64,000 nt of DNA, taken from Escherichia coli. Its GTDB lineage: Bacteria > Pseudomonadota > Gammaproteobacteria > Enterobacterales > Enterobacteriaceae. The stretch is from NCBI RefSeq assembly GCF_044324875.1, contig NZ_CP172188.1; one strand, given 5' to 3'. The translations under genes and the position numbers were made by a program. A model generated the notes under the pieces. The model was given only the letters and a program-made list of their open reading frames with translations. It had not been told where the DNA came from and ran no database searches. Positions 1,098 to 62,160 of this stretch are shown piece after piece. Numbering within the stretch: position 1 is the first letter of the stretch; each line of letters opens with the position of its first letter.

Positions 1098-4000
1098 GTG
1101 AAAATAACATTCTCCATACCCTCTCAACCGTACCGCATAGCGGATTTTTTACGGTTTAGAGGGGGTAATCCTTTGGATAAACTACTTCATTCAATCAGTG
1201 AAGCCTCCAGCTTAGGCGAACTGATTGAAATTGTTAGTCGGTTGCATAAATTACGTGCTGTTGCGACCTTTGGCGTTAAGAAAGTCGATGGTGTCAGCAT
1301 TCAAAAAACACGGCGGGCAGCAAACAACGCCGCAGTAGAGCTTCTTAATTCCCTTCCGCCCGGCTTCGATGGGGCGAAATTAACTGACGAACAACGTCAG
1401 ATTCTTGCCGGGTATACCGGTGAAGGCGGCCTGACAGATGGTGAGGGCAGCCAATACGAATACTACACACCACAGTTTATGGCTGAAGGTATATGGGATC
1501 TGTTTGCTGACTACGGTATTGATGGCGGGCACGTACTGGAACCATCAGCGGGCACAGGTATTTTCCAGGAGACAAAACGGCAGGGCATGATAATGACCAG
1601 CGCCGAACTATCTCCGATTTCCGGTCGAATAAACCAGCTTTTGCACCCGGAAGACGATGTGAATATCGGGGCGTTTGAGGCGCTGGCGGCGAAAGACGCA
1701 ATGTATGACCACGCTGTTGGTAACGTACCGTTTGGTGAAGGGCGTTCCGGCGTTGCCGGGCTTGATCCGGCATATGCAAACGAGAAGAACGTTGGCAATT
1801 ACTTTGTGCTGCGCACGATCGACAAGGTTAAGCCTGGTGGACTAATTGTATTGGTGGTGCCGAATGGCATGACCGATGGTACGAAATACAAAAAATTGCG
1901 CGATAAAGTCAGCCGTAAAGCGGAATTTTTGGGCGCACATCGTATGCCTTCTGGTACGTTCAGCGAATCCGGTACAGATACAGTGGTGGACGTATGGGTA
2001 TTGCGTAAACACCCGGAAACCTTCCTGGAGATGATCCCCGACACGGATGATGCAACGCTCAAGTCGGCAAACGTCCTTTGGGATACCTTCCTCAAAGGGA
2101 AATGGTTTACAACCGAAGGGAAGCGATTTGTTTACGGCGATATGGAGCGTACCAGCTTCCGCAATACCCTGGTGGTGAAAAAGGACGGTCGTGTATCCAA
2201 TGAGTCGATGAAAAACGCTCTATCGCGCCGCTTTGAAAGCCGCATTAATTGGGATTTGCTTGGCGTAACTACTCAGGCATGGCAGGGCGCGAAAGTGGGC
2301 GATAAACGCCTTGTAGGCGGCATCTGGCATGAGTTTGATGGCCTGAAATGGGTCAAGGACGCGACAACCAAATCCTCCGCGCTTGATGTAAATCGATATG
2401 GTGTTACGACGTTTGGTGATCTGCAGATCGCGTTTCAGTCAACAAATGGCATTCTGGCGTTGTCATGGGACCAGATATCGGCGATCGCGTCCGACTATCC
2501 GTCGGTTATCAGTGATGAAGTAGCGGCAATGATTCGCTTTGCTGGCAAGCAGAGAGAAAAAGACAGAGAACGCGTTATGCGCGGCGCACTGATAGGGCAG
2601 TTGATCAACAAGGCGCTTGATAAGCGTAATCTGGGGGAAAATGTTGATGATGAACTTGCTGATGCCGCGCGCCTGGCGGAAGCCGAAATTGCGAAGTATG
2701 GTCCGCCGCACGCGATTAAGCTGAATGGGATTGCTGAAGCTGGCGCTAAAAACTGGATGACTTTCACTGGCAACGTGAAACAGGACGGCTCTGCTTCTGA
2801 CCTCCTTGCTGGACGACTTGATGTAACGGATGGTGCTGCCGGTATTGACTTTACACGCCCGGAACAAGTTGTAACCCACCTTTTCAGTGACGTGGCACTT
2901 AATCCAATCACACTGGACGATTTTCGTGAGGCGTTTGCTGGCGAACTGCCAGAAGACGAAGATGCTGCTCTGGAATACCTGGCGAAATTTGATGATATCG
3001 CTATTGATGGGTATGGCTGCCTGCTGCCGATGGACCGCGCCACCAGCGGCGATATTGCAACCAAAACAGCATTGCTGGTGGGCTGGCGTGATGCGTCAAC
3101 AGGTGAGCAGAAAGCGAACTTTGAGCGTCAGTTGGCGAAAATCGAAGAGAAACGCATTTTCACGCCACTAAATAAAGTCACCGTTAATCTGAACGCCCGC
3201 TGGCTGGATCGCCGCTTGATAAAAGAGTTCCTGGCAGAGCAGGGCTATGACGAGTTTAAGTATACAGAACCCGACCTTAAGGTTGAGGACGGCATTCTGG
3301 TATCTCCGGACGATTACGAAGGTAAGGACGGGGTATTTACTGGCTATCAACTACGAACCGTAAACGGCAAAAACGGGAATGAGTTCAAGAAGGCCAACAA
3401 TAAAGACGGCTTCCTGAACCAGTTAGAAAACTACCTGAACGGCATTAAACCGCGTGGGCAGAACGCTAACGAGTACCTGGATAAGATTGCTCAACTGGAA
3501 ATTAGCTTCAACGACTGGTTACGCACTCACCCGCAGGCTGATCAGATAGCCCGCGACTATAACGACGCATTTAATGGCTTCATCCCGTTTACGCATTCTG
3601 ACGCACCGCTTGGCCTGGAGGGGATTAGTGGGAAGCGCATTCCTCTGACTTATCAGAATGAAGAAGTTCGGCGCTTGTCAGAAGATGGGCGCGGCATCAT
3701 GGGATTTGGTACCGGGCTGGGTAAAACCACGACCGCGCTTGCGCTTGAGGCGTATAACTTCGAAACAGGTCGCACTAAACGCACGTGTATTGTTGTTCCG
3801 AAGGCGGTTTATCAGAACTGGTATCACGAGGCACAGAGCTTCTACAGTGCTGATGCCTTCGCCAATATGATGTTTATCGGTCTGGATGAAGTTCGTGATG
3901 ACAGCGGAAATATTCTGACCGCGCCGGTGCTTGATGAAAATGGCGAACCACGCCTCGACAGTAACGGGCAGCCTCTTACCCGAAATGTTGTGAAAGAGTC

Positions 4001-7000
4001 CGCCAGCGCCGTTATCGTTCAGCGCATGAACATGATCCCGTCGTCAAATTGGCGAACGGTCATCATGACAAAAGAGCAATTCGCGTCTATCCCGCTACGA
4101 GAAGAAACCATTGAGGAAAACTCACAGCAAGCGGTCTTTAATGCTGTGGAAATGGGGCGTCTTGACCTGGCATCTGGCAAACACCGTGACGCGCAGAAGA
4201 AGAACAAGATTAAGGACCAGGCCGCAAATACCGGTACAACGAAGAAGCAGAATATCCCGTACTTTGAGGATATGAACTTCGATAGCGTAATTGCCGACGA
4301 AGGGCATAACTACCGCAACTCCTTTAGCGCCGGGCGCGAAGCGGGGCAACTGGCATATTTGCCTAACCCGGCAGTATCCAAAATGGCCCGCGACATGGCT
4401 GTAAAAGCTGCGTACATGATGAAACGCAACAACGGGCGTGGTGTGGTTATGCTGACGGCAACACCGCTGGTGAACAGCCCGATTGATGCTTTCAACATGC
4501 TGTCTACTGTCATTCCGCAGGAAGAGTGGATGCGCATGGGTATTGTTACGCCGGATGATTTCGTTCGCGTGTTCGGTAAAACAGCCACAGTTCAGGTTCA
4601 GAAAATTTCCGGTGAGGTGGAAGAGAAGCAGGGACTGGTGGGCTTCCAGAACCTGGATGGTCTGCGTGGTATTTTCCATCGCTGGACTACTCTGAAGACT
4701 GCTGCGGACGTCGGGGCGACGGTAAAAATCCCTGATATTGTCGAGAATACCTTGCAGATCCCGATGACAGGAGAGCAAGAGGCCATTTACGAAGAACTTC
4801 GTAAGCGTGCACAGGAGTTAAGTAGTAAAGATGCGCTGACGGTCGATGAAAACGGGCATATCACAAACGAAAAACCGGATGATTTCATCTTCTCCATCAT
4901 CCGCGACATGGATAAGGTTGCTATAGATCCTGATCTGTATGCCAGTGCGATTACATTCCAGTTCCCCGTTGAGCTTGCAGACAAGGTAAAAGCTATTGCT
5001 GATGCCCTGCCAAAAGTAGCTGGCGGTAAAGTGGCAGATGATGTAGACGAGGCCGAAGAAGATGGCGCTGGTGGGCTGGTCAGTACGCGTACCAGCAAGG
5101 TAGTGAAGACCACCTTTAGCGAACATCCGTCGCATGTTGAAATACGTGCTGGCATTGAACTGGAAGCTGAAATACTGAAGGCCATTGCGGCTGCCGGTAT
5201 TGATATGCAGCAGGTATCACACCCCATCCCGCCGAAGTATGCCGCGCTGATCGAAAACCTTCGTGAAGGTCTGAAGAACGGTAAACAAATCGTCTTCATT
5301 GATGAAAAAGCCCAGCACCAGAAGCTGCGCCGTATTATTGCCAGTGCACTGCAAATGCCGGAGCAGGAGATAGGCATTATCAATGCGACGACAGTTAGCC
5401 AGGCTGGCGGCGTCAAGCTGAAGAAGGTGAATAAGCCGACTGAACCTACGCCAAATAAAAACGGTGAATACAAAGAAGGTGCATGGGAAACCTACTACAG
5501 CAAACTTGCCCAATATGAGGATTATCTCTCAGCTAAAAATGATGCTGGCCTTGAGGGCATGGAAGGTATTGCCGCCGACTATAACGAAGGTCGCACGCGC
5601 ATCATAATCTGTAACAAGAAGGCTGAAGTAGGTATTAACTTGCACATCGGGACAACCGATATCCACCATCTGACACTACCCTGGACTCCTGCCAGTATCG
5701 ACCAACGTAATGGGCGCGGCGCTCGGGTAGGCTCACCACAAGAAAAGGTCAATGTTCACTACTATTGTGGCAAAGGCACATTTGATGACTTCCGTCTGGA
5801 TACGCTGAAACGTAAGAAGGACTGGATCAATATGGTGATGACCTCCGACATGTCAGAGATCGCCAATGGTGATGCGGATGACGCAGATGAACGCGCCATT
5901 ATGCTGGCGGCAAATCCGGAAGAACGCCGTGCAATCATGAGTCGTCAGGCGCAAGAGCGTGAAGAACGTCTGAAACTGAAAGCCCTACGCGAAGCCAATA
6001 ATGCTCTCGATAACTACCTGAAAGCGGCGAATGCTGCCGGGAAAGATATCGGCATGATGGAGACAGAACTGAAAAGCGCGATGGAGCAGGTAGAGCATTA
6101 CCAGCGCAATCTTGACGACCTGATTAAAGCGGGGACGAACAGGAACGGGCAGAAATATGTTCTGGAACAGTTGCGAGACTACAGAAAACGTGTGCGGGAG
6201 CTACGCTTTGCGATCACCAGAGCTAAAGACGCTGACACCGTTATGAAACGTTCTCGTGGTGATCTGGAACGTGCGATTAAAGCCGGGGTTCTGGAGCTTG
6301 ATGCCGATGTATTGCAGAACCCACAGGAGTATGTACGCACTGAGAAAAATATCTTGTTGCACAAGGGCAGCCATTATCGCGCGATCATCGATGAGAATCA
6401 CAATACGACAGCAATTGTTCGTGTTACCGCCATTGATGCGGAAAGGGGCGGGTGTACGTGCCGCATATCCTGGCTGGATGTGGCTAGTCGTTACTCTCGT
6501 TCTCCGGGGACGGCATTATTTTTGCCCTTTAACCTGATAATTGAATCGGTAACCTTTGAAGAGGGAGTTGCAGAATCGCGTGAAACAGCTGCACGTGGTG
6601 TTCAATGCCACCAGCTATCAACAACACTTACGCGCGATCAGTTCTATGATGCTATTCGCAATGGGGTAATGAATGTCACTGCCGGGAAGCCTAGTAGAGT
6701 ATGGGGCGGTGGTTCAGCTATTAAATACTGGGCTTATCGCACCGATGATGGTCAGATTGCACTGTCATCGGCTTATGATGGCGTAATAGGTCAAAAAATC
6801 GGGCGAGCATCGGATATAGCGCCTGAGCGGTGGATTTACCCTGATGGCAACGATGAGGCGCTGAAGCGTGAAGTGGCAAAAATACAAGCCAGTGATAACC
6901 CGCTGAATGTCGTGGACGGCGAGGGATTCCTCCAGGCATTGTATGGATATGATTACATCCAGGGAATGCAGGCATGGGGGTCACAGGCCACGATGGATGA

Positions 7001-8012
7001 TGTTTCCCAGGAGTTTGAAAACTGGATGGCAGGGCGTGGTTTGTCCGGTCGCTCACTTAATAAAGTTACTTCTGAAGATATTCTTAGCCTGTTCCGTAAA
7101 CCGTCCGGAGAAGGGCTGGAATCTTTCTGGAAGACCGTGGTGGCATACCGTTTATTCCAGGGCAGGATGAAAGCCTTTAGCAACACTGATGACATTGAAC
7201 GGATGTTTAATCAGGTGAAGGCCGCGAAAATTACGGCGAAAATTGAGAAAACACGAGCTGCGCTGGTGGCCTGGCGCGATGCATTGTTTGAGCAATATAA
7301 ATCACTCAGCGATGCCGATGGCTGGTCGGCATTGGAGCAGCTGGCTAATAATGGTGTCGATGGAGCGAAATTAGCCATTGTTCAGGCCGATAATCCTCTG
7401 GATTCGCCAGCAGCGCAGTGGATTAAGGTGGGGGCTGTCATCAATGCATTTGATGAAAAACACATTAGTAAGGACGATTTTGCTGATGCTGTTTCTGTTA
7501 ATCGCCTGGTAGAAATGGCTACCCGTCGCGCCCGTGAGTTGAAAGACGGCGACTATGTGAATGAGTTGCCGGATGCGCTCAAATCGGCAACGTGGCAGGA
7601 CTATGTATCGCTGAAAAACGGCGGGGCCACTGAATCAGAGATCGCGGAAAGGCTTGAGCAGGCTGAAAGCAAAAGAGAAGAGCAGGCGGCAGTGGCTGAA
7701 TCCAGAGCTGATGAAGCGGCGAATGATGACTATATCATTGTGGTTAATGATAAGCCGATTCGCGCTAAGGCGCGTGTTCGCGGGCGCTGGTGGAGCGTCA
7801 GCGAAGACGTTGGCGCGGTTTATCTCATTGCCGACCAGCCAGGTTCCTCGACAATACGGAACGCCAAAGACGCGATTAAGAAGATTGGCGGGCGTTTCTG
7901 GAATTTTGAAGCAAACCCGGTTGCTGATGTGAACTTTGACCGTCCGGCATGGATGGTATCTACGCGTTACTCGGTAGATGAACTGCGTAAAATAATCGCC
8001 GATGCGGCCTAA
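1098..8012 (+). CDS. darB: DarB-like giant antirestriction protein (N6-adenine DNA methyltransferase + SF2/SNF2-like helicase)
   Basis: 2304 aa single ORF; SAM-binding motif LEPSAGTGIF, catalytic-type motif NVPFG; helicase motifs GFGTGLGKTTT (Walker A), DEGHNYRN (DEAH-like), QRNGRGARVG (motif VI); size and domain order match phage P1 DarB. Confidence 0.8.
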   Translation: MKITFSIPSQPYRIADFLRFRGGNPLDKLLHSISEASSLGELIEIVSRLHKLRAVATFGVKKVDGVSIQKTRRAANNAAVELLNSLPPGFDGAKLTDEQRQILAGYTGEGGLTDGEGSQYEYYTPQFMAEGIWDLFADYGIDGGHVLEPSAGTGIFQETKRQGMIMTSAELSPISGRINQLLHPEDDVNIGAFEALAAKDAMYDHAVGNVPFGEGRSGVAGLDPAYANEKNVGNYFVLRTIDKVKPGGLIVLVVPNGMTDGTKYKKLRDKVSRKAEFLGAHRMPSGTFSESGTDTVVDVWVLRKHPETFLEMIPDTDDATLKSANVLWDTFLKGKWFTTEGKRFVYGDMERTSFRNTLVVKKDGRVSNESMKNALSRRFESRINWDLLGVTTQAWQGAKVGDKRLVGGIWHEFDGLKWVKDATTKSSALDVNRYGVTTFGDLQIAFQSTNGILALSWDQISAIASDYPSVISDEVAAMIRFAGKQREKDRERVMRGALIGQLINKALDKRNLGENVDDELADAARLAEAEIAKYGPPHAIKLNGIAEAGAKNWMTFTGNVKQDGSASDLLAGRLDVTDGAAGIDFTRPEQVVTHLFSDVALNPITLDDFREAFAGELPEDEDAALEYLAKFDDIAIDGYGCLLPMDRATSGDIATKTALLVGWRDASTGEQKANFERQLAKIEEKRIFTPLNKVTVNLNARWLDRRLIKEFLAEQGYDEFKYTEPDLKVEDGILVSPDDYEGKDGVFTGYQLRTVNGKNGNEFKKANNKDGFLNQLENYLNGIKPRGQNANEYLDKIAQLEISFNDWLRTHPQADQIARDYNDAFNGFIPFTHSDAPLGLEGISGKRIPLTYQNEEVRRLSEDGRGIMGFGTGLGKTTTALALEAYNFETGRTKRTCIVVPKAVYQNWYHEAQSFYSADAFANMMFIGLDEVRDDSGNILTAPVLDENGEPRLDSNGQPLTRNVVKESASAVIVQRMNMIPSSNWRTVIMTKEQFASIPLREETIEENSQQAVFNAVEMGRLDLASGKHRDAQKKNKIKDQAANTGTTKKQNIPYFEDMNFDSVIADEGHNYRNSFSAGREAGQLAYLPNPAVSKMARDMAVKAAYMMKRNNGRGVVMLTATPLVNSPIDAFNMLSTVIPQEEWMRMGIVTPDDFVRVFGKTATVQVQKISGEVEEKQGLVGFQNLDGLRGIFHRWTTLKTAADVGATVKIPDIVENTLQIPMTGEQEAIYEELRKRAQELSSKDALTVDENGHITNEKPDDFIFSIIRDMDKVAIDPDLYASAITFQFPVELADKVKAIADALPKVAGGKVADDVDEAEEDGAGGLVSTRTSKVVKTTFSEHPSHVEIRAGIELEAEILKAIAAAGIDMQQVSHPIPPKYAALIENLREGLKNGKQIVFIDEKAQHQKLRRIIASALQMPEQEIGIINATTVSQAGGVKLKKVNKPTEPTPNKNGEYKEGAWETYYSKLAQYEDYLSAKNDAGLEGMEGIAADYNEGRTRIIICNKKAEVGINLHIGTTDIHHLTLPWTPASIDQRNGRGARVGSPQEKVNVHYYCGKGTFDDFRLDTLKRKKDWINMVMTSDMSEIANGDADDADERAIMLAANPEERRAIMSRQAQEREERLKLKALREANNALDNYLKAANAAGKDIGMMETELKSAMEQVEHYQRNLDDLIKAGTNRNGQKYVLEQLRDYRKRVRELRFAITRAKDADTVMKRSRGDLERAIKAGVLELDADVLQNPQEYVRTEKNILLHKGSHYRAIIDENHNTTAIVRVTAIDAERGGCTCRISWLDVASRYSRSPGTALFLPFNLIIESVTFEEGVAESRETAARGVQCHQLSTTLTRDQFYDAIRNGVMNVTAGKPSRVWGGGSAIKYWAYRTDDGQIALSSAYDGVIGQKIGRASDIAPERWIYPDGNDEALKREVAKIQASDNPLNVVDGEGFLQALYGYDYIQGMQAWGSQATMDDVSQEFENWMAGRGLSGRSLNKVTSEDILSLFRKPSGEGLESFWKTVVAYRLFQGRMKAFSNTDDIERMFNQVKAAKITAKIEKTRAALVAWRDALFEQYKSLSDADGWSALEQLANNGVDGAKLAIVQADNPLDSPAAQWIKVGAVINAFDEKHISKDDFADAVSVNRLVEMATRRARELKDGDYVNELPDALKSATWQDYVSLKNGGATESEIAERLEQAESKREEQAAVAESRADEAANDDYIIVVNDKPIRAKARVRGRWWSVSEDVGAVYLIADQPGSSTIRNAKDAIKKIGGRFWNFEANPVADVNFDRPAWMVSTRYSVDELRKIIADAA

Positions 8013-9894: not shown

Positions 9895-9922
9895 AAAAAC
9901 CCGCCGATTAGCGGGTTTTTTG
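9895..9922 (+). terminator. rho-independent terminator
   Basis: AAAACCCGCCGATTAGCGGGTTTTTTG hairpin + T-run immediately after the 9574..9888 ORF. Confidence 0.7.
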
Positions 9923-9962
9923 TTTATCACATCTTTCGCTCTTGTTCTCATACTAATAAAAT

Positions 9963-9980
9963 ATGTTAGAAAACTAATTT
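9963..9980 (+). promoter_or_regulatory. operator-like motif copy (ATGTTAGAAAACTAATTT)
   Basis: Consensus copy directly upstream of the 10004..11212 CDS. Confidence 0.5.
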
Positions 9981-10003
9981 TGCAAAAAACAATGGGAACT
10001 GCA

Positions 10004-11212
10004 ATGAGTCAACAAACTGATACTTCTAATCTGGAAATCATCTCAGCCGCGATTGAAACGCTGCGGACACAGATCGCCCTTATTCAAAAGCGGAATCCGG
10101 GGGATGACCTGTCCAGACGGCTACATGAGAGCGTCATTGCCACTACTGATAACCTGGTCGCGGAGATCAACCAGCTACTTGAGGAAGGGACGGTTGATTA
10201 CAACAAGCTGGTGGATCAGTTTGAGGAATATCAACAAGCCGTTAATGATGGCTTGATCCGTTTTTCACAAGTCACAGGCGTATCAGCGACAGTTGAAAGT
10301 CTTGGCAATGCTGTTAATCAATTTGCCGCGAATATGCGTAGTGAGATCGGCAATCTGGAAGCGCGTCTTGAACAGGCAAACACACTGCGCAAATCCGCAG
10401 AAGCCGATTTGAGTCGTTACAAAAAAGACTATCCAGCCAGTCTGTCAAAACGACTGGATGTTGCGGAGAAGGATAACCGTGCGCTGAAAAGAGAGCGTCG
10501 GGAACTAAAAGAGCGTTTAACAGAGCTGAATCAGCAATGCATTAAGTATCAAGGCGAAGGCGTCACACTGCGTAAAAAGTTAGCAGCAGCGCAGAACATT
10601 ATTGAAACGCTGAAACGAGAGTGCTCACAGCTTGGTCATGATCTGAACCGCGCTTGTGGTATGGGACAAAGGCCAGAGACATTCCCGCTCATGTATGACG
10701 GGGTGGATGCTATTGCCTATATCCATGAGTACCCGCATGGTCTGGTTGCGGAGACTGGTCAGCGTGGTGAAGCTCTGTTGACGGCTAATTACCATCAACA
10801 AATTAGAACCAACCGCCTGCTGACGATGGATGTGATCCCATCAGTATGGGGAACGCCGCTTTACTATCGCCTGCCCGGCTTCGAAACGGACTGGAATACC
10901 GATATAGACGAATGCCTGGCAGATAAAATTATGGCGTACCTGGAGACTGATTTCCCGCGCCTGCATCGCCGGATTATGGACTCTAAGGATGCGCCGATCG
11001 ATGAATTGAAAATGCGCCCAGAGACGTTGGAAGCTATCAAACAGACTGCGTTTGATACCGTATTCAGCGTGGCCTGTATCCCAAGTAGTTTTCATGAAAG
11101 CATCCCCTTTATGCAGGGCGACCGTCGTCAAGAAATTATTGATGCCTGCCGGGTGTGGGCTAACGAATGGGACAAGAAGAATGGGGGCGTAGAAGATCTT
11201 TATGGGAAATAA
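10004..11212 (+). CDS. hypothetical protein with N-terminal coiled-coil region
   Basis: ORF 9920..11212; most likely start ATG 10004 (GGGAA RBS-like 7 nt upstream); heptad-like charged N-terminal third. Confidence 0.55.
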   Translation: MSQQTDTSNLEIISAAIETLRTQIALIQKRNPGDDLSRRLHESVIATTDNLVAEINQLLEEGTVDYNKLVDQFEEYQQAVNDGLIRFSQVTGVSATVESLGNAVNQFAANMRSEIGNLEARLEQANTLRKSAEADLSRYKKDYPASLSKRLDVAEKDNRALKRERRELKERLTELNQQCIKYQGEGVTLRKKLAAAQNIIETLKRECSQLGHDLNRACGMGQRPETFPLMYDGVDAIAYIHEYPHGLVAETGQRGEALLTANYHQQIRTNRLLTMDVIPSVWGTPLYYRLPGFETDWNTDIDECLADKIMAYLETDFPRLHRRIMDSKDAPIDELKMRPETLEAIKQTAFDTVFSVACIPSSFHESIPFMQGDRRQEIIDACRVWANEWDKKNGGVEDLYGK

Positions 11213-11213
11213 T

Positions 11214-11231
11214 ATGTTAGAAATCTAATTT
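11214..11231 (+). promoter_or_regulatory. operator-like motif copy (ATGTTAGAAATCTAATTT)
   Basis: Starts 2 nt after stop of the 10004..11212 CDS. Confidence 0.45.
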
Positions 11232-11368
11232 CATCAAACGAACATATTGATTGTGAGAGTAACTTAACTTAGAATTTTCCTTGCTGGTGGAGCGTTGCCA
11301 CATTTCGCTTGCTGGGCTTGATAGTCACTTATTGGTTGTTGTTCGCCCACCAGCAAATAACAAATTAA

Positions 11369-11385
11369 AGTGTTAGAAAATTACA
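11369..11385 (+). promoter_or_regulatory. operator-like motif copy (AGTGTTAGAAAATTACA)
   Basis: TGTTAGAAAA core at the start of the long non-coding tRNA region. Confidence 0.4.
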
Positions 11386-11967
11386 TGCATACAGGGACTC
11401 GCTTTGGCACCGAGCAAGCCAAAGTTCAGCAGGTTTAGTGCGTAAAGTGGTTTCAGAGAGAGCACTTTACGGAGTAAACAACAAGACATGTTGAGCCACG
11501 GAAGGTCTTTTTAAGATGTTCATTGATGATGGTCCGGCAGAGAGTAACGGGACTCGCCGCATCGAATCATCATCAATGCACATCCTCAACATTAAGGAGG
11601 CATAGGGATTTTTTTGTGGCGATTACCTTTTGCCCTAAGTCTCCTTAATGTTGCGGTAATGCACCTATGCGGATGCGGCCTTGCATTGTGTCTTGAAAGA
11701 ATGGGGTAAGGCCGGGGATATCCCCAGGGGGAGGCACCCCCGCTGCAACGAACAGCCACAGACGGCAGTCGAGTGATGGAAACGTGCAAAGACTTTAAAC
11801 CTCGTTACGGCTGGCGTGGCAAACGCGACAACCGAGACAGAGCGGTGACGGGCGGAGAGAGTGCCGCATCAAGAAAGAAGCCGACTTGTGATCCCTTTCT
11901 GCGGGCATTTGAAAGTGAATCCAGCTCAGGCAGTCGGCTTCTTTCTTGTGTGAGATGTAGCGTATTT

Positions 11968-11992
11968 GCCCATCTTCGGGTGGGCTTTTTTA
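11968..11992 (+). terminator. rho-independent terminator-like hairpin
   Basis: GCCCATCTTCGGGTGGGC followed by TTTTTT; no credible CDS upstream, so may terminate a non-coding transcript. Confidence 0.45.
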
Positions 11993-12451
11993 GGGTTTTC
12001 GTCATGGTTAGCGACTTTGCGGCGGTTTAGAACCCGACCATTAAAGTAAATGCAAACGATGATCTGATGATGGTAGCGGCCTAAGAAGCCTGACGCCACG
12101 GGGTATGAGTCGTCCCCCGTCAAAAAATCGACCGCAGAGTGTCCCCGTCTGTGTATTAGGGAACGGGGAGGCATAACAGGCAAGGGCGCTGGTGTGATTA
12201 ACCAGATGAATGAGAAGGGTCAGGTCTTTCTGGTCAGCGCCCTTACCTGTTACGTCCCTCCCGCGTAACAGCCATTGATTAATGGCTTTCTGGGATAACA
12301 TCCTACTACGGGTATATCCCGTCATGCTGAAGGCGCTAATCACGCTGGAAGCCAGGGTTGTGCATCCCCTGTTACCGAATTGCAGCCAGGGCGCGGTGCG
12401 CCGAAAAGCATACGGAGGTGGAAGCCCTCGCCGGAGACGTACCCGGCAAGT

Positions 12452-12528
12452 GATGGTGTAGCTCAGTAGGATAGAGCAGCAGCCTTCTAAGCTGTCGGTC
12501 GGTGGTTCGAATCCACCCACCATCGCCA
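12452..12528 (+). tRNA. tRNA-Arg (anticodon TCT)
   Basis: 77 nt; 7-bp acceptor stem GATGGTG/CACCATC, D-arm GCTC..GAGC, anticodon loop CTTCTAA, T-arm GGTGG TTCGAAT CCACC, encoded CCA. Confidence 0.9.
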
Positions 12529-12530
12529 AT

Positions 12531-12606
12531 GCCGGTTTAGCTCAGTTGGTAGAGCGCCTGCCTTGTAAGCAGGATGTCAGCGGTTCGAGTCCGTTAACCG
12601 GCACCA
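12531..12606 (+). tRNA. tRNA-Thr (anticodon TGT)
   Basis: 76 nt; acceptor GCCGGTT/AACCGGC, anticodon loop CTTGTAA, T-loop TTCGAGT, encoded CCA; P1 also carries a tRNA-Thr. Confidence 0.9.
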
Positions 12607-12608
12607 AC

Positions 12609-12694
12609 ACAACAGGTAAGGGTATTTTGCGACGTCGGAGATCGCCGTGCTTGGCAGAGGGTTCGAATCCCTACGAAGTACCCTTACCGTTGTG
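12609..12694 (+). other. tRNA-like remnant / structured element: 15-16 bp stem enclosing a T-loop-like GGTTCGAATCC
   Basis: ACAACAGGTAAGGGTA ... TACCCTTACCGTTGTG inverted repeat; no canonical D or anticodon arm identifiable. Confidence 0.25.
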
Positions 12695-13071
12695 ATGAAG
12701 TGCAGCTCTTTGAAGCAACCAGAAGATAAGCATCTGGCTTCACAACATAAACCGCAGGAACGACCAATAAACGGTAGTCCGTATGGAGAATACCCCGTTG
12801 AGGAAGAGGCCTGGCCGGAACCGTAACCGGCACTACAACGTTGAGAACACTGACGTAACGGGGTCATATCCCAATCTACGAATAAATGTTGCGTTGCAGC
12901 GTGACAACCAGTGTTCTCAACGTTGTGGTGGATTCGCAGACTGATGCGATAGCTTTCTTGGATGTTAGGGAAATGCGGCCGCAAACCTTCCCTTTCGCGA
13001 GCGGTGATCGTCCGTAGTCCTAATTGGCTGCACCGTATGCCGGAGATTCAGTACCGGCCACCACAACGGCC

Positions 13072-13158
13072 GGAGAGTAGGGAGCATGGTGCTCAAGCGG
13101 TCTTGAAAACCGTCCCATTGCGCAAGCGATGATGGTTCGATTCCATTACTCTCCGCCA
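13072..13158 (+). tRNA. atypical type-II (long variable arm) tRNA-like gene, anticodon possibly TGA (Ser-like); may be a pseudo-tRNA
   Basis: 87 nt; acceptor GGAGAGT/ACTCTCC, anticodon stem-loop GCGGT-CTTGAAA-ACCGT, T-arm GATGG TTCGATT CCATT, discriminator G + CCA; D-arm irregular. Confidence 0.4.
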
Positions 13159-13561
13159 TCGCAACGTTAAGAGTATTTGGCTAATTAAGCGAATGCCGGA
13201 AGCAGAACCGGATCAACAAATGCGTACAGGCGTCATCGCCGCCCAGCCAGCCAAGTGCTCTTACCATTGCGGTGAATGCGGCTAAGCGCACGCGGAACAG
13301 TTAAAACAATCCTGCTTACTAAACATCCCGGCGTTAATTGTTAACTGGTTAACGTCACCTGGAGGCACCAGGCACCGCAATCTAACAGCAATGGCGTTTT
13401 GTCTTAAAAGGTAGCTGCAAGTGATGGATTTTTGGGCCTTTGCCGATAAGAACCCTGGTTGGACATTTTTATTTCTGCTGGTGGTTGCATATGGGATCGA
13501 GCAAGCGGCAAAAGCCTTACGCGGTTCTGGCAAAAAGCGTAAGCGGAATTAACAGTAATCT

Positions 13562-13637
13562 GGCCCTTTAGCTCAGTGGTTAGAGCTGGCGACTCATAAT
13601 CGCACGGTCACCGGTTCAAGTCCGGTAGGGGCCACCA
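13562..13637 (+). tRNA. tRNA with CAT anticodon, most likely tRNA-Ile2 (lysidine type) rather than elongator Met
   Basis: 76 nt; GGCCCTT acceptor, anticodon loop CTCATAA, T-loop TTCAAGT; resembles enterobacterial ileX-type tRNA as I recall it; P1 also encodes a tRNA-Ile. Confidence 0.85.
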
Positions 13638-14090
13638 TATTTGGTTGTAACACGGCGTATGGCACATGCGTCGTTAGCGGTCTGGTGACGTTATAGGGGT
13701 TACCTTTTCCCCTAGCTCAGGCAACAAACCAGGTAGCCGGAATGTGCAAGCCCCGTTCATATCGTCGGACCGAGGACTCACCATCCTGGCGATTCGGTGT
13801 GACAGCCGGAAGAGTACGGCGCACAACAGGAAAAGGCGTTTAATTAACGTGAGCGCCGTTTCCGTTGTGGTAATTGCGGCTATGCGCTCGTGACGAAGCC
13901 ATTTTCATTCACTACGTTCTGATAAGTGACGTCGCCAGGAGTGGCTAACCTGGCAGGTGGAGTCACCACCGCCACAACTCCTTTCAATTCATCATATAGC
14001 CGCTCAGGCTGTAACCCTTAATTAATACGAAGTTTCGACATCTCTATCGGTTTAACCGAGGGATGGTCGCGCGTGTAAAAAGGAGACGTT

Positions 14091-14666
14091 ATGTTAACGG
14101 CGAACGATAACGCGTATGCAGAAGCAGATCTCATATTGAGTGACTTCATCGGTCAGCGGGAACGCTGGACACAAAAGCGAGAGGAACTTTATGCCTCGTT
14201 AGTTCGCAAAGGTGTCAACATTGAAACCGCTCAAAGCGGCGATATGACGGTAGTCAGTGTTGGATTACATGGTGTGAGCGTGTCCGCAGCCAATCATGAG
14301 CCATACGTAGCGTTATCCGAGTCGATGGCAAGGCTAATTAAGTTTCTGAAGCAAACAGAAGCCAATAATGTTTTCATCGCCAAAAAGAACATCAATTTTT
14401 CTGCCGCCATGTTCTGGATGATGAAGGGGCTGGATGCCCGCCGGGCATCATGGCCTAAAGGGAGCTATTTATCGATGTTCCGTGGCAGCATTGGCAGCAA
14501 AGAAAAGCTCTTCGAATTCTTGCCGGAAGAGGCATTCGATATTGTGGAAGGGTGCGATGTGATGGTTATGCCTCGCCTGGTAATGATGAATGGGGATTTA
14601 CAGGCGCAGACAGACTGGTTCGCAACTGGCGTGGATATTATCGCAACTGACTGGGAGGCATTCTGA
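14091..14666 (+). CDS. hypothetical protein with C-terminal DUF2829/Tad2-like domain
   Basis: 191 aa; C-terminal LDARRASWPKGSYL ... IIATDWEAF. Confidence 0.5.
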   Translation: MLTANDNAYAEADLILSDFIGQRERWTQKREELYASLVRKGVNIETAQSGDMTVVSVGLHGVSVSAANHEPYVALSESMARLIKFLKQTEANNVFIAKKNINFSAAMFWMMKGLDARRASWPKGSYLSMFRGSIGSKEKLFEFLPEEAFDIVEGCDVMVMPRLVMMNGDLQAQTDWFATGVDIIATDWEAF

Positions 14667-38139: not shown

Positions 38140-38430
38140 GGCATTATCGTGGGGTATATTTCTACGGCACCTTAGAAAAACGGGTGCCGGGATTGGAACC
38201 CCGGATAATGCAAAAGGCGACACAGACGCCGAAAGCGTCTTTTCTTGTGTCATGCCATCGCACAGCCATACGTAGCGTTTAGCTCAGAGATCAATGGTAG
38301 TGCTGGCTGGGCTGCCGAAAGGCAGGCCGGTTCCCTTTTGCGCCGGTAGTTCCAACCCAGTCAGTGCTACCGCCATTGAGATTGGAACCTCACGCGGTAG
38401 CTCCTTAAATTAGCAAAAGGAGGCTGCCAA
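38140..38430 (+). ncRNA. candidate c4-like antisense RNA / leader region of immunity module A
   Basis: Structured leader upstream of the icd-like gene: direct repeats GATTGGAACC (38192, 38383) and a partly complementary GTTCCAACC (38346); hairpin GACGCCGAAAGCGTC + T-run near 38223. Confidence 0.3.
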
Positions 38431-44281: not shown

Positions 44282-44935
44282 ATGGAAAAGATCGCAATAT
44301 TCAGCCTGACCACCAGCAAGCCTCAAATGCTCACTGCAATACTGAAAGACGGTGCTCTCATTATTAACGAAGTAAAACCCCTTCCCGCGTCAGCATTGGA
44401 GCAAAAGCAAAAAATTCCTCCAGCTATAGCAGCCCTGCGGAAAAGCAAATTTAAGGTACTGGTAGACGAAATTACGCCAACGATCTCCGCTGGCACCGGA
44501 GCAAGCCAGGTTACTCTCAAGACCCGTCATGCCGATGGCAGAGCAGCAATCATCGTCGGGATGGAAAGATACAGAGAGTTAAAACTCCAGAAGCTATTAT
44601 CCCTGCCGCAAAATAACAAAGGTGCTTTCGAAATCCCTGACTCCATCGTTGACACCGAATACAACGGTAACGGAGAAGAAGTCTACCGGGTGAACTGGCA
44701 GGATATCAGGCCGGAACATATTCTGATGGTCCTGTGTTGCTACGCGACCGTATACCACAACGTTGCCAGTGCAGATTACGTAGAGCAGATGACCGGCACA
44801 GTCGAGAAAGAGCAAAAAACAGGCATACTCGCTTCGTTCCTGTCCATTATTGGGCATGAAAAAGTTGAAGCAGGCACCTCCCAGCCAAAGTCACTGGCTG
44901 GGAAAGAAGTTGATGAAGATACCGTGATACTTTGA
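44282..44935 (+). CDS. hypothetical protein
   Basis: ORF 44240..44935; start set at MEKIAIF. Confidence 0.45.
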   Translation: MEKIAIFSLTTSKPQMLTAILKDGALIINEVKPLPASALEQKQKIPPAIAALRKSKFKVLVDEITPTISAGTGASQVTLKTRHADGRAAIIVGMERYRELKLQKLLSLPQNNKGAFEIPDSIVDTEYNGNGEEVYRVNWQDIRPEHILMVLCCYATVYHNVASADYVEQMTGTVEKEQKTGILASFLSIIGHEKVEAGTSQPKSLAGKEVDEDTVIL

Positions 44936-45271
44936 TCACATTAGTAGCTTTGTTAACTCCCTCAATACCAGGTAGAAGAGTAACAAAAACACTGACGTGG
45001 ATACCTGCTGAGTTAAAGAAGCACTAATGAATTTATTCAATAAATCAATCAGCTTATTAAAAATATTCATCTTTTCGAATCCATTCGATCGGTAAATAAC
45101 ACCCAGCTCACTATCGAGCTGGTCCACGCCTTAAGATTAATGAAAGTCACTTGTTGACAGTCAATAAATTCCAGGGTGGCGAAAAAACTCTGTCTATACG
45201 GATAGTGCTTGCATTTTACTCTTTCTGCGTGTAGCGTATATACACAGGTTGCACGCACGAATGGAATTATT

Positions 45272-61899: not shown

Positions 61900-62160
61900 T
61901 TCAGGCTTATATTCACGCCGTTGCAGCAAATTCTGCGACCGGGTTTAGCAGCCTGAATGTACATGCGGACAACCGCAGATATCCGATATTGCGGTATTTT
62001 TGTGTCCGTAAAACCATGTTACGCCCGAATTATGGTGGGGCGTGATGGGGAGGCTTCGGCCTGCTGGTTTCATGTACGCCAGTCTGCTAACCCCGTCACG
62101 TCCTGCCACCCGTTTAGCAGCGGGTAGCAGGTTGTTAAACCTGTACATGAGGCCGTAACT
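61900..62160 (+). ncRNA. candidate c4-like antisense RNA locus of immunity module B
   Basis: Paired elements a=TTTAGCAG and b=GTACATG occur at 61945/61958 and again at 62112/62141; complements (CATGTAC at 62066, CTGCTAA at 62085) lie between in reversed order. Confidence 0.35.

Follow-up and report, generated by a model that had tools for sequence, protein, structure and literature searches.

The region described here occupies positions 11213-14090 (2878 bases) of a 64,000-nucleotide stretch of Escherichia coli DNA (NCBI RefSeq assembly GCF_044324875.1, contig NZ_CP172188.1), hereafter the window, where it lies between a pmgS-like gene (9920-11212) and homologues of the phage D6 genes orf6, orf5, lpa and pacA (14091 onward). 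It carries four transfer RNA (tRNA) genes, a series of long hairpins, further structured RNA modules and one gene for a small membrane protein, the coordinates of which are collected in Table 1. An original prediction made from the letters had proposed one or more structured non-coding RNAs or degenerate tRNA copies in this region, which it regarded as devoid of credible protein genes. We suggest that the region is probably the untranslated leader of a repressor-controlled operon, which would be transcribed as a polycistronic precursor of stable RNAs and in which the hairpins would act as processing or insulating sites, probably for ribonuclease III (RNase III).

The region is 95.3% identical to Escherichia phage D6 across 94% of its length and 99.9% identical to one E. 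coli plasmid, and 1136 plasmid records match it. The gene order is that of D6, and the host element is a D6-like phage-plasmid of the P1 family. Two segments, 11965-12946 and 13551-13823, are 91-92% identical to the ban-operon leader of phages P1 and P7, and homology and gene order both relate the region to P1 68855-71200; the first 750 bases (11213-11965) are found in D6-like elements only. The P1 record lists, in order, the promoter Pban with C1 operators, a 'dicF-like region', trnA, trnT, plp and upl on the other strand, tciA-tciB-tciC, trnI and ban. With P1 and P7 the window shares a repressor operator at the head, a probable one in the window, and an order that runs from the terminator and core leader through two tRNAs and the hairpins to the tci cassette and tRNA-Ile2, but its region is placed between pmgS and orf6/orf5/lpa, whereas the P1/P7 leader is placed between dmt and ban, and homologues of D6 orf6/orf5/lpa stand downstream in place of ban, a dnaB analogue. 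The content differs as well: the first tRNA slot of the window holds Arg(UCU) and not Asn(GUU), tRNA-Ser is present in the window, P7 and D6 but not in P1, tciA and tciB are present in D6, P7 and P1 but not in the window, and the P1 record has the coding sequences (CDSs) plp and upl where the window shows RNA hairpins and no coding signal. We reject a DicF identity for the 'dicF-like region', because the Rfam DicF model matches neither the window (E up to 10) nor P1 (E up to 1).

The composite is present in 610 of 5426 complete E. coli genomes (~11%), with 621 of 637 places lying on plasmids. Its modules are 90-100% conserved over hundreds of plasmids, and short blocks are 80-97% conserved in unrelated phages, namely lambda and P22-like, Sashavirus, SSU5-like and rV5-like phages. 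The locus as such is the known tRNA/ban leader of the P1 family and not a new kind of system, but its content is largely undescribed, comprising a covarying hairpin family, a 58-nt junction motif (the H element) and a module that resembles the tag-encoding part of transfer-messenger RNA (tmRNA), all without a Rfam family. No new module reaches threshold in Rfam 15, and literature searches found no description of these elements. In P1vir, RNA-seq has indicated differential expression of upl and tciB (PMC8201110) and of trnA, trnI, tciA/B/C and ban (bioRxiv 10.64898/2025.12.28.696737).

Table 1. Features of the region, with positions in the window
Feature	Position	Strand	Remarks
17-mer TGTTAGAAATCTAATTT	11215..11231	+	candidate operator of a D6-type C1 repressor; directly 3' of the pmgS stop codon
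Sigma-70 promoter-like TTGATT-17-TAGAAT	11247..11275	+	putative; consensus scan, 9/12 matches
Four leader hairpins	11281-11356, 11433-11479, 11510-11589, 11586-11654	+	D6-like elements only; z -3.0 to -7.1
Inserted 115-nt module	11751..11865	+	missing from L128 and L129, two diverged D6-like plasmids; a segment of a Pantoea plasmid is 81% identical
Long hairpin	11865..11952	+	17-bp perfect core, 11870-11886/11932-11948
Intrinsic terminator GCCCATC-TTCG-GGTGGGC + T6	11968..11991	+	terminator scan; also at the 3' end of the P1 'dicF-like region'
Core 5' domain, ~270 nt	11992..12265	+	conserved in P1-like and SSU5-like phage-plasmids (alignments)
tmRNA-tag-like frame	12052..12084	+	GCA AAC GAT GAT CTG ATG ATG GTA GCG GCC TAA = ANDDLMMVAA*
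P1-family-specific 3' leader part	12266..12451	+	small hairpins 12270-12287, 12291-12305 and others
tRNA-Arg(UCU)	12452..12528	+	ARAGORN; Rfam RF00005, 72.1 bits
tRNA-Thr(UGU)	12531..12606	+	ARAGORN; Rfam, 74.9 bits
GGTAAG-type trailer hairpin	12608..12695	+	~25 bp, one bulged A, T-loop-like interior GGGTTCGAATCCC; 1 nt after the tRNA-Thr CCA
H element	12689..12746	+	P1 9 bp, junction AAGUGCA, P2 3 bp with loop CUUUGA, AA, P3 CCAG/CUGG with loop AAGAUAAGCAU
Trailer-family hairpin CACTACAACGTTGAGAACACTG / CAGTGTTCTCAACGTTGTGGTG	12831..12930	+	arms 12831-12852/12909-12930, 22 nt, 95% complementary
Long-range pairing CGTTGTGGTGG / CCACCACAACG	12921..13068	+	11 bp, perfect; encloses a module known in ~12 loci only
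tRNA-Ser(UGA), class II	13072..13158	+	ARAGORN; long variable arm; best Rfam model tRNA-Sec
Trailer hairpin GCAACGTTAAGAGTATTTGGCT / AGCCAAGTGCTCTTACCATTGC	13160..13276	+	contains G-U pairs; loop 13183-13247 has 96.9% identity with the late leader of phage lambda
STnc100-like element	13268..13379	+	Rfam RF02076, 35.7 bits against a gathering score of 47, E 2.3e-5
Small membrane-protein gene, TciC family (MDFWAFADKNPGWTFLFLLVVAYGIEQAAKALRGSGKKRKRN)	13421..13552	+	phrog_23152, E 1e-3 (weak match)
tRNA(CAU)	13562..13637	+	ARAGORN; Rfam, 64.7 bits; Ile2-like by homology to P1 trnI (annotated ileX-like)
3' untranslated part	13638..14090	+	hairpins 13652-13674 and 13694-13714, then the Shine-Dalgarno site of the downstream gene
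CACAAC...GTTGTG hairpin	13822-13869	+	within the 3' untranslated part

Trailer hairpins and the H element

In many arrangements of these arrays the last tRNA of each run is followed by a long hairpin, the 5' arm of which begins 1-3 nt after the tRNA with the consensus ACAYARC-RN-TRAG.... The trailer hairpin behind tRNA-Thr has a folding energy of -42.1 kcal/mol (z -5.0), that at 12831-12930 reaches -52 kcal/mol (z -7.8, with 0/200 shuffles equally stable), and the hairpins 12165-12261, 13822-13869 and 11865-11952 are related to the family. The sequence CACAAC or its complement, found at the base of such helices, occurs nine times within 12357-13978 compared with 33 times across the 64 kb. Stems that had been pointed out in the original prediction are all present, and most extend further than proposed: the 11 bp at 11521/11569 belong to 27-nt arms (11510-11536/11563-11589, 81% complementary, z -4.2), the 10 bp at 11877/11932 to the 17-bp core of the hairpin upstream of the terminator, the 17-19 bp at 12838/12908 to the 22-nt arms of the -52 kcal/mol hairpin, and the 15-bp stem with a T-loop-like interior at 12609..12694 to the ~25 bp of the trailer behind tRNA-Thr. 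In addition, strong hairpins that it did not list lie at 11281-11356, 11433-11479, 11586-11654, 12165-12261, 13160-13276 and 13822-13869. Overall, the stems are much more stable than shuffled sequence (z -3.0 to -7.8).

Pairing within the trailer family is maintained by changes on both strands of the helix. Selection of members required 13 or more Watson-Crick pairs among the 16 basal positions, and 52 distinct arm pairs contain 90.6% standard pairs, a percentage that the selection rule inflates at positions 1-16; at positions 17-20, outside the rule, only 0-5 of the 52 sequences are unpaired. Both sides are changed at 19 of 22 pairs, and the covariation of 0.634 exceeds that of shuffles (0.232, 0/500) and of slid partners (at most 0.153). 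On the tRNA-sense strand, G-U outnumbers A-C by 88 to 46 within the first 20 positions, a bias of less than twofold among sequences that are not independent, and the stems are longer in this sense. The proposal of structured non-coding RNAs thus gains support from conservation, from compensatory changes across phage families and from the excess of G-U on the sense strand. Moreover, stems of 20-27 bp provide the approximately two turns (>=20 bp) of double-stranded RNA in a transcript that characterize an RNase III site.

Orthologous copies of the 12608-12695 stem also carry compensatory changes, and the stem encloses at least five non-homologous interiors in relatives, only some of which are T-loop-like, so that the T-loop-like interior does not represent a tRNA remnant kept by conservation. 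The idea of degenerate tRNA copies is accordingly only weakly supported. The same hairpin was considered as a tRNA, or as the tRNA-like domain of a tmRNA, and was rejected, since a CCA is lacking and relatives, P7 among them, have a different interior.

Members of the family occur outside the phage-plasmids. In phage lambda, a family hairpin (CACAACAGGTAAGAGCATTG...CAGTGCTCTTTCCGTTGTG) directly follows the terminator tR'; next come a 65-nt block with 96.9% identity to window 13183-13247 and then CACAAC. The lambda hairpin and 65-nt block together (L133 1424-1580, ~lambda 44789-44945) are covered by no Rfam family. Sashavirus phages contain a composite of hairpin plus H element. The lambda tR'-S leader resembles the present region in that a promoter-proximal terminated RNA is followed by untranslated modules, but lambda has no tRNAs at this place (Stx phages have them), and read-through in lambda requires Q, an equivalent of which is not known for the P1/D6 leader. 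The lambda RNase III sites presumably lie in the family hairpin after tR'. RNase III processing sites are on record for the lambda late transcript in vivo (Daniels et al. 1988 Virology 167:568, as cited in PMC7547250).

The H element is 95% conserved even in SSU5-like plasmids of Klebsiella. Scanning for the invariant loop yielded 36 distinct copies, which share a three-way junction composed of a 9-bp P1, the junction AAUUGCA, a P2 of 3-4 bp with the loop CNNNGA, the linker AA, and a P3 (CCAG/CUGG) with the loop AAGAUAAGCNN. As P3 was fixed by the search pattern it is uninformative, but double-sided changes are seen at seven of nine P1 pairs and two of three P2 pairs, a score reached by 0/500 shuffles. 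A covariance model (R1) finds a single copy in the window (82.5 bits, E 9e-23), and the element is also present in P22-like, Sashavirus and other contigs. In many contigs it lies 33-37 nt upstream of N-type antiterminator genes that encode at least four types of arginine-rich motif (lambda-like, phi21-like and two others); examples are L131, L134, L147, L150, L151, L156, L193 and L240, and in L158, L167 and L236 a good boxA-like CGCTCTTTTTGA precedes it.

This position matches that of the RNase III-sensitive structure of the lambda N leader. In a more speculative reading, weighed below, the H element would be a new cis-acting element of phage operons, which in the leaders of N genes and in tRNA operons could be a processing, antitermination or translation-control signal. 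It is unlikely to be a boxB matched to one N protein, because the motifs of the proteins encoded downstream vary. No copy was found in lambda, in HK022 20000-40751 (best R1 hit 10.8 bits, E 0.9) or in Rfam, and an identity with the HK022 put antiterminator RNAs (putL/putR) was dropped on the HK022 result. A boxA reading of GCUCUUUGAAGCAA within the element was likewise discarded, as the stretch is not conserved in other copies, and so was a hammerhead or other known ribozyme, for which neither a Rfam match nor core motifs were found.

Conservation along the region varies from module to module and presence is patchy. Variants are joined at CACAAC/GTTGTG: Cyrano has Thr-ACACAAT-T-Ser without an insert, pJN2-26 has Asn-CAAC[hairpin][H]CACAAC-GAAC-Ser, and in the window three further modules stand between the CACAAC copies at 12741 and 13062. 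We favour a mosaic that arose by recombination at the conserved sequences closing the helices, with selection keeping the modules intact.

The leader as a proposed precursor and competing explanations

The head of the region has the appearance of a repressor-controlled promoter. The 17-mer TGTTAGAAAWCTAATTT has nine copies in the window at up to three mismatches (9964, 11215, 19503, 20904, 31445, 36964, 37614, 61822 and 63761), compared with 0.26 expected, while the consensus of the P1 C1 operator has no match in the window. In P1 and P7, the ban leader opens with C1 operators (Op72/Oban) at the corresponding place. Since C1 operators are scattered in P1, with Op72 located at Pban, the set of 17-mers probably represents, by analogy, the operators of a D6-type C1 repressor with its own specificity. 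Downstream of the putative promoter, the hairpins 11510-11589 and 11586-11654 share the arm 11563-11589, and the hairpin 11433-11479 is the most stable of the leader relative to shuffles (z -7.1); these stems are kept in relatives at 74-93% identity, mainly through G-U/A-U transitions. The L128/L129 orthologue of hairpin 11865-11952 has the family base CGCAAC...GTTGTG, and its lower stem is rewritten on both sides (CAACATAC/GTATGTTG, compared with CAAGAAAG/CTTTCTTG in the window), such that the pairing is compensated. The terminator that had been noticed at 11968 with no upstream CDS was recovered by the scan (11968-11985 plus the T-run). It would close the leader RNA, the 3' end of which, hairpin and terminator, aligns with the end of the 'dicF-like region' that follows Pban in P1.

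Starting from the observed anatomy, homology, tRNAs, covarying stems and distribution, we infer functions for the modules as follows. Once the repressor is lifted, transcription would start near 11280, and part of it would stop at 11991 to yield a leader RNA of ~700 nt, the P1 counterpart of which ('dicF-like') has ~190 nt. The remainder would read through the terminator into the core domain, the tRNAs, tciC and on into orf6, orf5 and lpa. The tRNAs would be matured by RNase P and host 3' trimming enzymes, whereas the 20-25-bp hairpins would be cut by host RNase III, which would free the tRNA runs and modules from one another. Over evolutionary time, modules may have been exchanged between unrelated phages by recombination at the CACAAC/GTTGTG sequences. 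The tRNA cluster of phage T4 is similar in being a tRNA operon interspersed with structured stable RNAs (species 1 and 2), but T4 is lytic and its cluster much denser in tRNAs. Species 1 RNA of T4 is a substrate of RNase III in vitro.

P1 and lambda are among the best-studied phages, yet their leader regions are annotated as empty or with doubtful ORFs such as plp and upl. If the proposed precursor is correct, the organization and processing of a multi-kilobase untranslated tRNA operon would be explained and its database annotation corrected, two testable RNA motifs outside Rfam would be defined, and a few short RNA modules would emerge as part of a common toolkit that is swapped among temperate phages of Enterobacteria and, in E. 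coli, resides almost always on phage-plasmids. It would also raise the question of why phage-plasmids retain a tmRNA-tag-like frame beside tRNAs.

Several observations weigh against such a precursor, beyond the selection rule and the modest G-U bias given above. The promoter is a consensus match, and the 17-mer lies upstream of its -35 element and not over it, whereas a C1 operator over the promoter would mark a ban-operon leader of the P1 family. A strong terminator stands between this promoter and the tRNAs, and we know of no antiterminator for the P1/D6 leader. Insertions and truncations in the leaders of the relatives L110 and L025 imply that not every module is essential, and a DNA-level recombination site could also account for hypervariable loops with conserved bases. 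In the SSU5-like contig L110 (~1626-2166) an insertion of ~320 bp in the core leader is flanked by the short duplication GCAGAACGCAGGAT, and in L025 (~3767-4300) the leader is truncated and unrelated sequence takes its place.

The last of these points leads to a different view of the hairpins, as folded single-strand recombination sites similar to attC, or as inverted repeats resembling miniature inverted-repeat transposable elements, which shuffle cassettes of tRNAs and small RNAs and for which any RNA structure is incidental. Like integron attC sites, they are imperfect inverted repeats with AAC...GTT ends, a bulged base, a covarying upper stem and a variable, non-homologous centre of 30-80 nt; they flank exchangeable cassettes, the tRNA arrays are highly variable, and module boundaries coincide with CACAAC/GTTGTG in Cyrano, pJN2-26 and the window. 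Their cores depart, however, from the attC consensus RYYYAAC/GTTRRRY (ACACAAC agrees at 6/7 and GTTGTGA at 5/7 positions, read from the sequence), in five phage groups every occurrence is on the transcribed strand of an operon, where G-U is more frequent than A-C, and a family member presumably lies at the reported RNase III sites of lambda. The strand preference and the operon setting point to RNA, and recombination joints at helix boundaries would also be tolerated by selection. To our knowledge no integron integrase occurs in P1, D6 or SSU5-like phages, although no search for one was made here. We consider this DNA-level origin improbable. That the region apart from its tRNAs is decaying debris of tRNA genes, a tmRNA and a deleted tciA/tciB cassette, its stems being left over from duplications, would accord with the loss of tciA and tciB relative to D6, P7 and P1, with the variable T-loop-like interior, with a tmRNA-like module that has no tRNA-like domain, and with patchy modules that are inserted into or truncated in relatives. 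Debris would not be expected to remain 90-100% conserved over hundreds of plasmids and 80-97% conserved in short blocks of unrelated phages, nor to keep its stems by compensatory changes and a tag-like frame tag-like in eight variants, and we hold decay to be quite improbable.

Two further explanations receive still less weight. A long non-coding stretch beside phage tRNAs, with long-range helices in the core domain and the 11-bp pairing 12921/13068, recalls single large ornate RNAs of the GOLLD or ROOL type; given that neither Rfam model matches at E up to 10, and that the modules are separated and reordered among phages, which argues for independent units, one such RNA upstream of and between the tRNAs is very improbable. 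The least credible explanation, to which we attach hardly any weight, invokes unannotated protein genes, either minus-strand ORFs in the style of the P1 plp/upl or an arginine-rich ORF of 48-53 aa at 12783-12944. The P1 and RCS47 records do annotate plp and upl here, a minus frame of 135 residues is open, and the minus ORF 12041-12529 matches phrog_27020. Yet these ORFs run across tRNA genes of the other strand, PGAP leaves the stretch mostly without annotation, P7 has unrelated sequence in part of the plp-like ORF, and the arginine-rich ORF is truncated or changed after ~12 residues in many relatives. The 135-aa ORF (12577-12984), the equivalent of P1 plp, matches no PHROG or NCBIfam family, overlaps tRNA-Thr, contains homology breakpoints and 38 indel sites, and shows substitutions spread as 37/42/47 over the three codon positions; from this we conclude that it is not a gene. 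Because it has no coding signature, the P1 plp and upl annotations are probably spurious as well.

A tmRNA-tag-like module in the core 5' domain

SSU5-like phage-plasmids from E. coli and Klebsiella (Cyrano, pJN2-26, pKP110-2) also have the core 5' domain, and in them a promoter-like TTACTT-17-TATAAG and a palindromic operator lie directly 5' of it. The domain is predicted to contain two long-range helices (11998-12003/12205-12210 and 12023-12028/12125-12130) and hairpins at 12099-12119, 12142-12169 and 12165-12261, the last with z -5.4. A pattern derived from the domain retrieved 120 IMG/VR loci, which form 41 sequence clusters. RNAalifold, applied to 58 distinct sequences, proposes the long-range helices as UUCGUC/GAUGAA and CGGUUU/AAAUCG, along with hairpins that show compensatory differences between the P1-like and SSU5-like families, for example CGGGG/CCCCG and CGAGG/CCUCG, which stem from few independent events.

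Within this domain lies a short frame that resembles the E. coli SsrA tag ANDENYALAA. It is preceded by the A-rich UAAAGUAAAU, begins with a GCA codon as would a resume codon, ends in a hydrophobic A/V-A-A, as expected of a tmRNA tag frame, and has its stop codon in the loop of a small hairpin. Among 127 loci the frame takes eight forms (ANDDLMMVAA, ANDDLMMAAA, ANDNLMMVAA, ANEEVYLAVA, ANDNQYLAVA, ANEDTYLAVA, ANEDAYLAVA and ANEDSYLAVA), all of which resemble the SsrA tag, and one TAT/TAC change is synonymous. A regular expression for the tag, written post hoc, gives one match in the six frames of the window and none in 200 shuffles. The likeness to tmRNA thus includes a resume-codon-like GCA after an A-rich UA(A/G)NU context, a frame of ten residues, AN(D/E)(D/E/N)x(Y/M)(L/M)(A/V)(V/A)A-stop, the stop codon in a hairpin loop, and a 5' UUCG(U/A)C segment similar to tmRNA nt 4-25, with which the SSU5-type 5' end GAUGACUUUGUUUUCGUUGAGA agrees at 15 of 22 positions as read from the sequence.

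The remainder of a tmRNA is not in evidence. The module has no acceptor stem, T arm, CCA or pseudoknot 1, and its nucleotide similarity to ssrA is not significant: a core-domain profile (nhmmer) run against a 1.1-Mb background finds only the tag region of K-12 ssrA, at E 7.7. At the position of the tag, the Rfam model tmRNA_permuted scores a consistent 22-25 bits in the window, P1, L128 and Cyrano, a weak sign of kinship with tmRNA that stays below the gathering score of 47, and RF00023 is not reported at E up to 10. ARAGORN at default settings calls no tmRNA or tRNA-like domain in the window or in 130 loci, and apart from the genuine tRNAs a T arm is present only in the interior of hairpin 12608-12695. 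A 'permuted' tmRNA called by ARAGORN under relaxed settings has an unconvincing tRNA domain and stands among obvious false positives. Likewise, no tRNA-like partner for the module emerged from pairwise alignment with K-12 ssrA, from the terminator stem as a permuted acceptor stem or from the first tRNA. A mimicry of CRISPR repeats (types I-E and I-F) was dropped, the resemblances not being conserved in SSU5-like copies.

We call the core a tmRNA-derived, mRNA-like module without a tRNA-like domain, judging by these similarities. Positions 11992-12265 might belong to a working phage relative of tmRNA, its tRNA-like domain lacking or supplied by a separate partner, which would tag stalled nascent chains with ANDDLMMVAA, or with ANExxYLAVA, during infection by P1, D6 or SSU5-type phages; or they might act as a decoy aimed at the trans-translation machinery of the host. 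Taken jointly with the proposal that the 58-nt junction is a new cis-acting RNA element, either version is a tentative reading that we think rather unlikely to hold as a whole.

tRNA genes, coding content and minor features

The original prediction named three tRNAs, Arg(UCU), Thr(UGU) and CAU, and suggested sensitive tRNA searches, Rfam/Infernal scans and covariation analysis. ARAGORN and Rfam confirm all three, each above the Rfam gathering score of 29, and the analyses of related elements find that the stems covary (0/500 shuffles for both the trailer family and the H element); the prediction had missed a fourth tRNA, Ser(UGA). The palindrome CCGGCC...GGCCGG reported at 13056 is present and forms the leader hairpin (13054-13073) of this overlooked gene. 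tRNA-Ser scores 46.6 bits with the tRNA-Sec model (gathering 47), higher than with the ordinary tRNA model; its D loop is short (4-5 nt), and a fold with an acceptor of 8 bp and a T stem of 4 bp is possible. SSU5-like and rV5-like phages conserve the gene, which together with its trailer is 83-88% conserved in the latter, and tRNAscan-SE gave it no isotype in the D6 record.

The tRNA-Arg of the window is a chimera, in which the acceptor and T arms of the P1/D6 tRNA-Asn(GUU) are combined with another D loop, of Arg type, and with the anticodon arm for UCU (compared with L001 4233-4308 and L002 3494-3569); both versions of this slot circulate among relatives, and in L100 slot 1 and Thr are merged into a truncated hybrid. 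The arrays consist of Asn(GTT) or Arg(TCT) in slot 1, an optional Tyr(GTA), Thr(TGT), an optional Ser(TGA) and an optional CAT, and one locus has a His(GTG) tRNA. In the ORFs of the window the cognate codons AGA, ATA, ACA and TCA make up 9.9% of Arg, 19.3% of Ile, 27.7% of Thr and 19.8% of Ser codons, respectively, about two to three times the E. coli values. Such usage is consistent with a role of the four tRNAs in supplying A-ending codons that the phage uses far beyond what the host tRNA pool favours; counter-defence roles of phage tRNAs have been described too. The RefSeq record of D6 (NC_050154, L001 4233-4938) places three tRNAs on the strand opposite to the ARAGORN calls and omits both tRNA(CAT) (L001 5924-5999) and tciC.

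As to coding content, the view that the region has no credible protein genes holds with the exception of a possible small membrane peptide at about 13424..13552, which was flagged at the time and proves to be real, as a TciC homologue. PGAP annotates no CDS across the 5' 750 bases in ~120 related plasmids. TciC proteins start MGFWDFADKHP... in P1/P7 and MDFWAFADKNP... in the window, the pattern M[DGE]FW..DK.P followed by a transmembrane segment and a basic part is common to P1, P7 and D6, and the changes between the D6 and window types are conservative, as is typical of coding sequence. The loss of tciA and tciB (TerB, DUF3927) compared with D6, P7 and P1 maps between 13385 and 13422 of the window. 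The arginine-rich frame 12783-12944 (MENTPLRKRPGRNRNRH...), which follows the H element and runs through hairpin 12831-12930, resembles the arginine-rich motifs of N proteins; it is probably not a gene, only its first ~12 residues being constant in relatives. In P1, plp ('putative lipoprotein') and upl (L002 3618-4187) run antisense to conserved RNA hairpins, plp also overlapping trnT.

Among the minor RNA features, the STnc100-like element aligns with model positions 31-147, a partial and sub-threshold match; copies are found in P1 (33.4 bits) and in lambdoid phages, and the region 13260-13400 folds no better than shuffles (z -1.4). The 3' untranslated part contains a long-range pairing, 13784-13792/13932-13940. 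Rfam matches to microRNAs, MicA, STnc240, YrlA and plastid families were set aside as hairpin or tRNA look-alikes far below threshold.

Further observations concern the surroundings. The gene downstream (14091-14666) is named 'MW1434 family type I TA system toxin' by PGAP in related plasmids, but its protein matches no NCBIfam family and, among PHROGs, families of unknown function only. An ORF of 2304 aa lies upstream on the + strand (1098-8012). C4 antisense RNA matches are found at 38167-38377 and 61907-62113 (76.7 and 71.7 bits). Upstream of one lies an isrK match (59.4 bits), upstream of the other a match to the c4-a1b1 target (53.5 bits), and the element seems to carry two immunity modules of the immI type.

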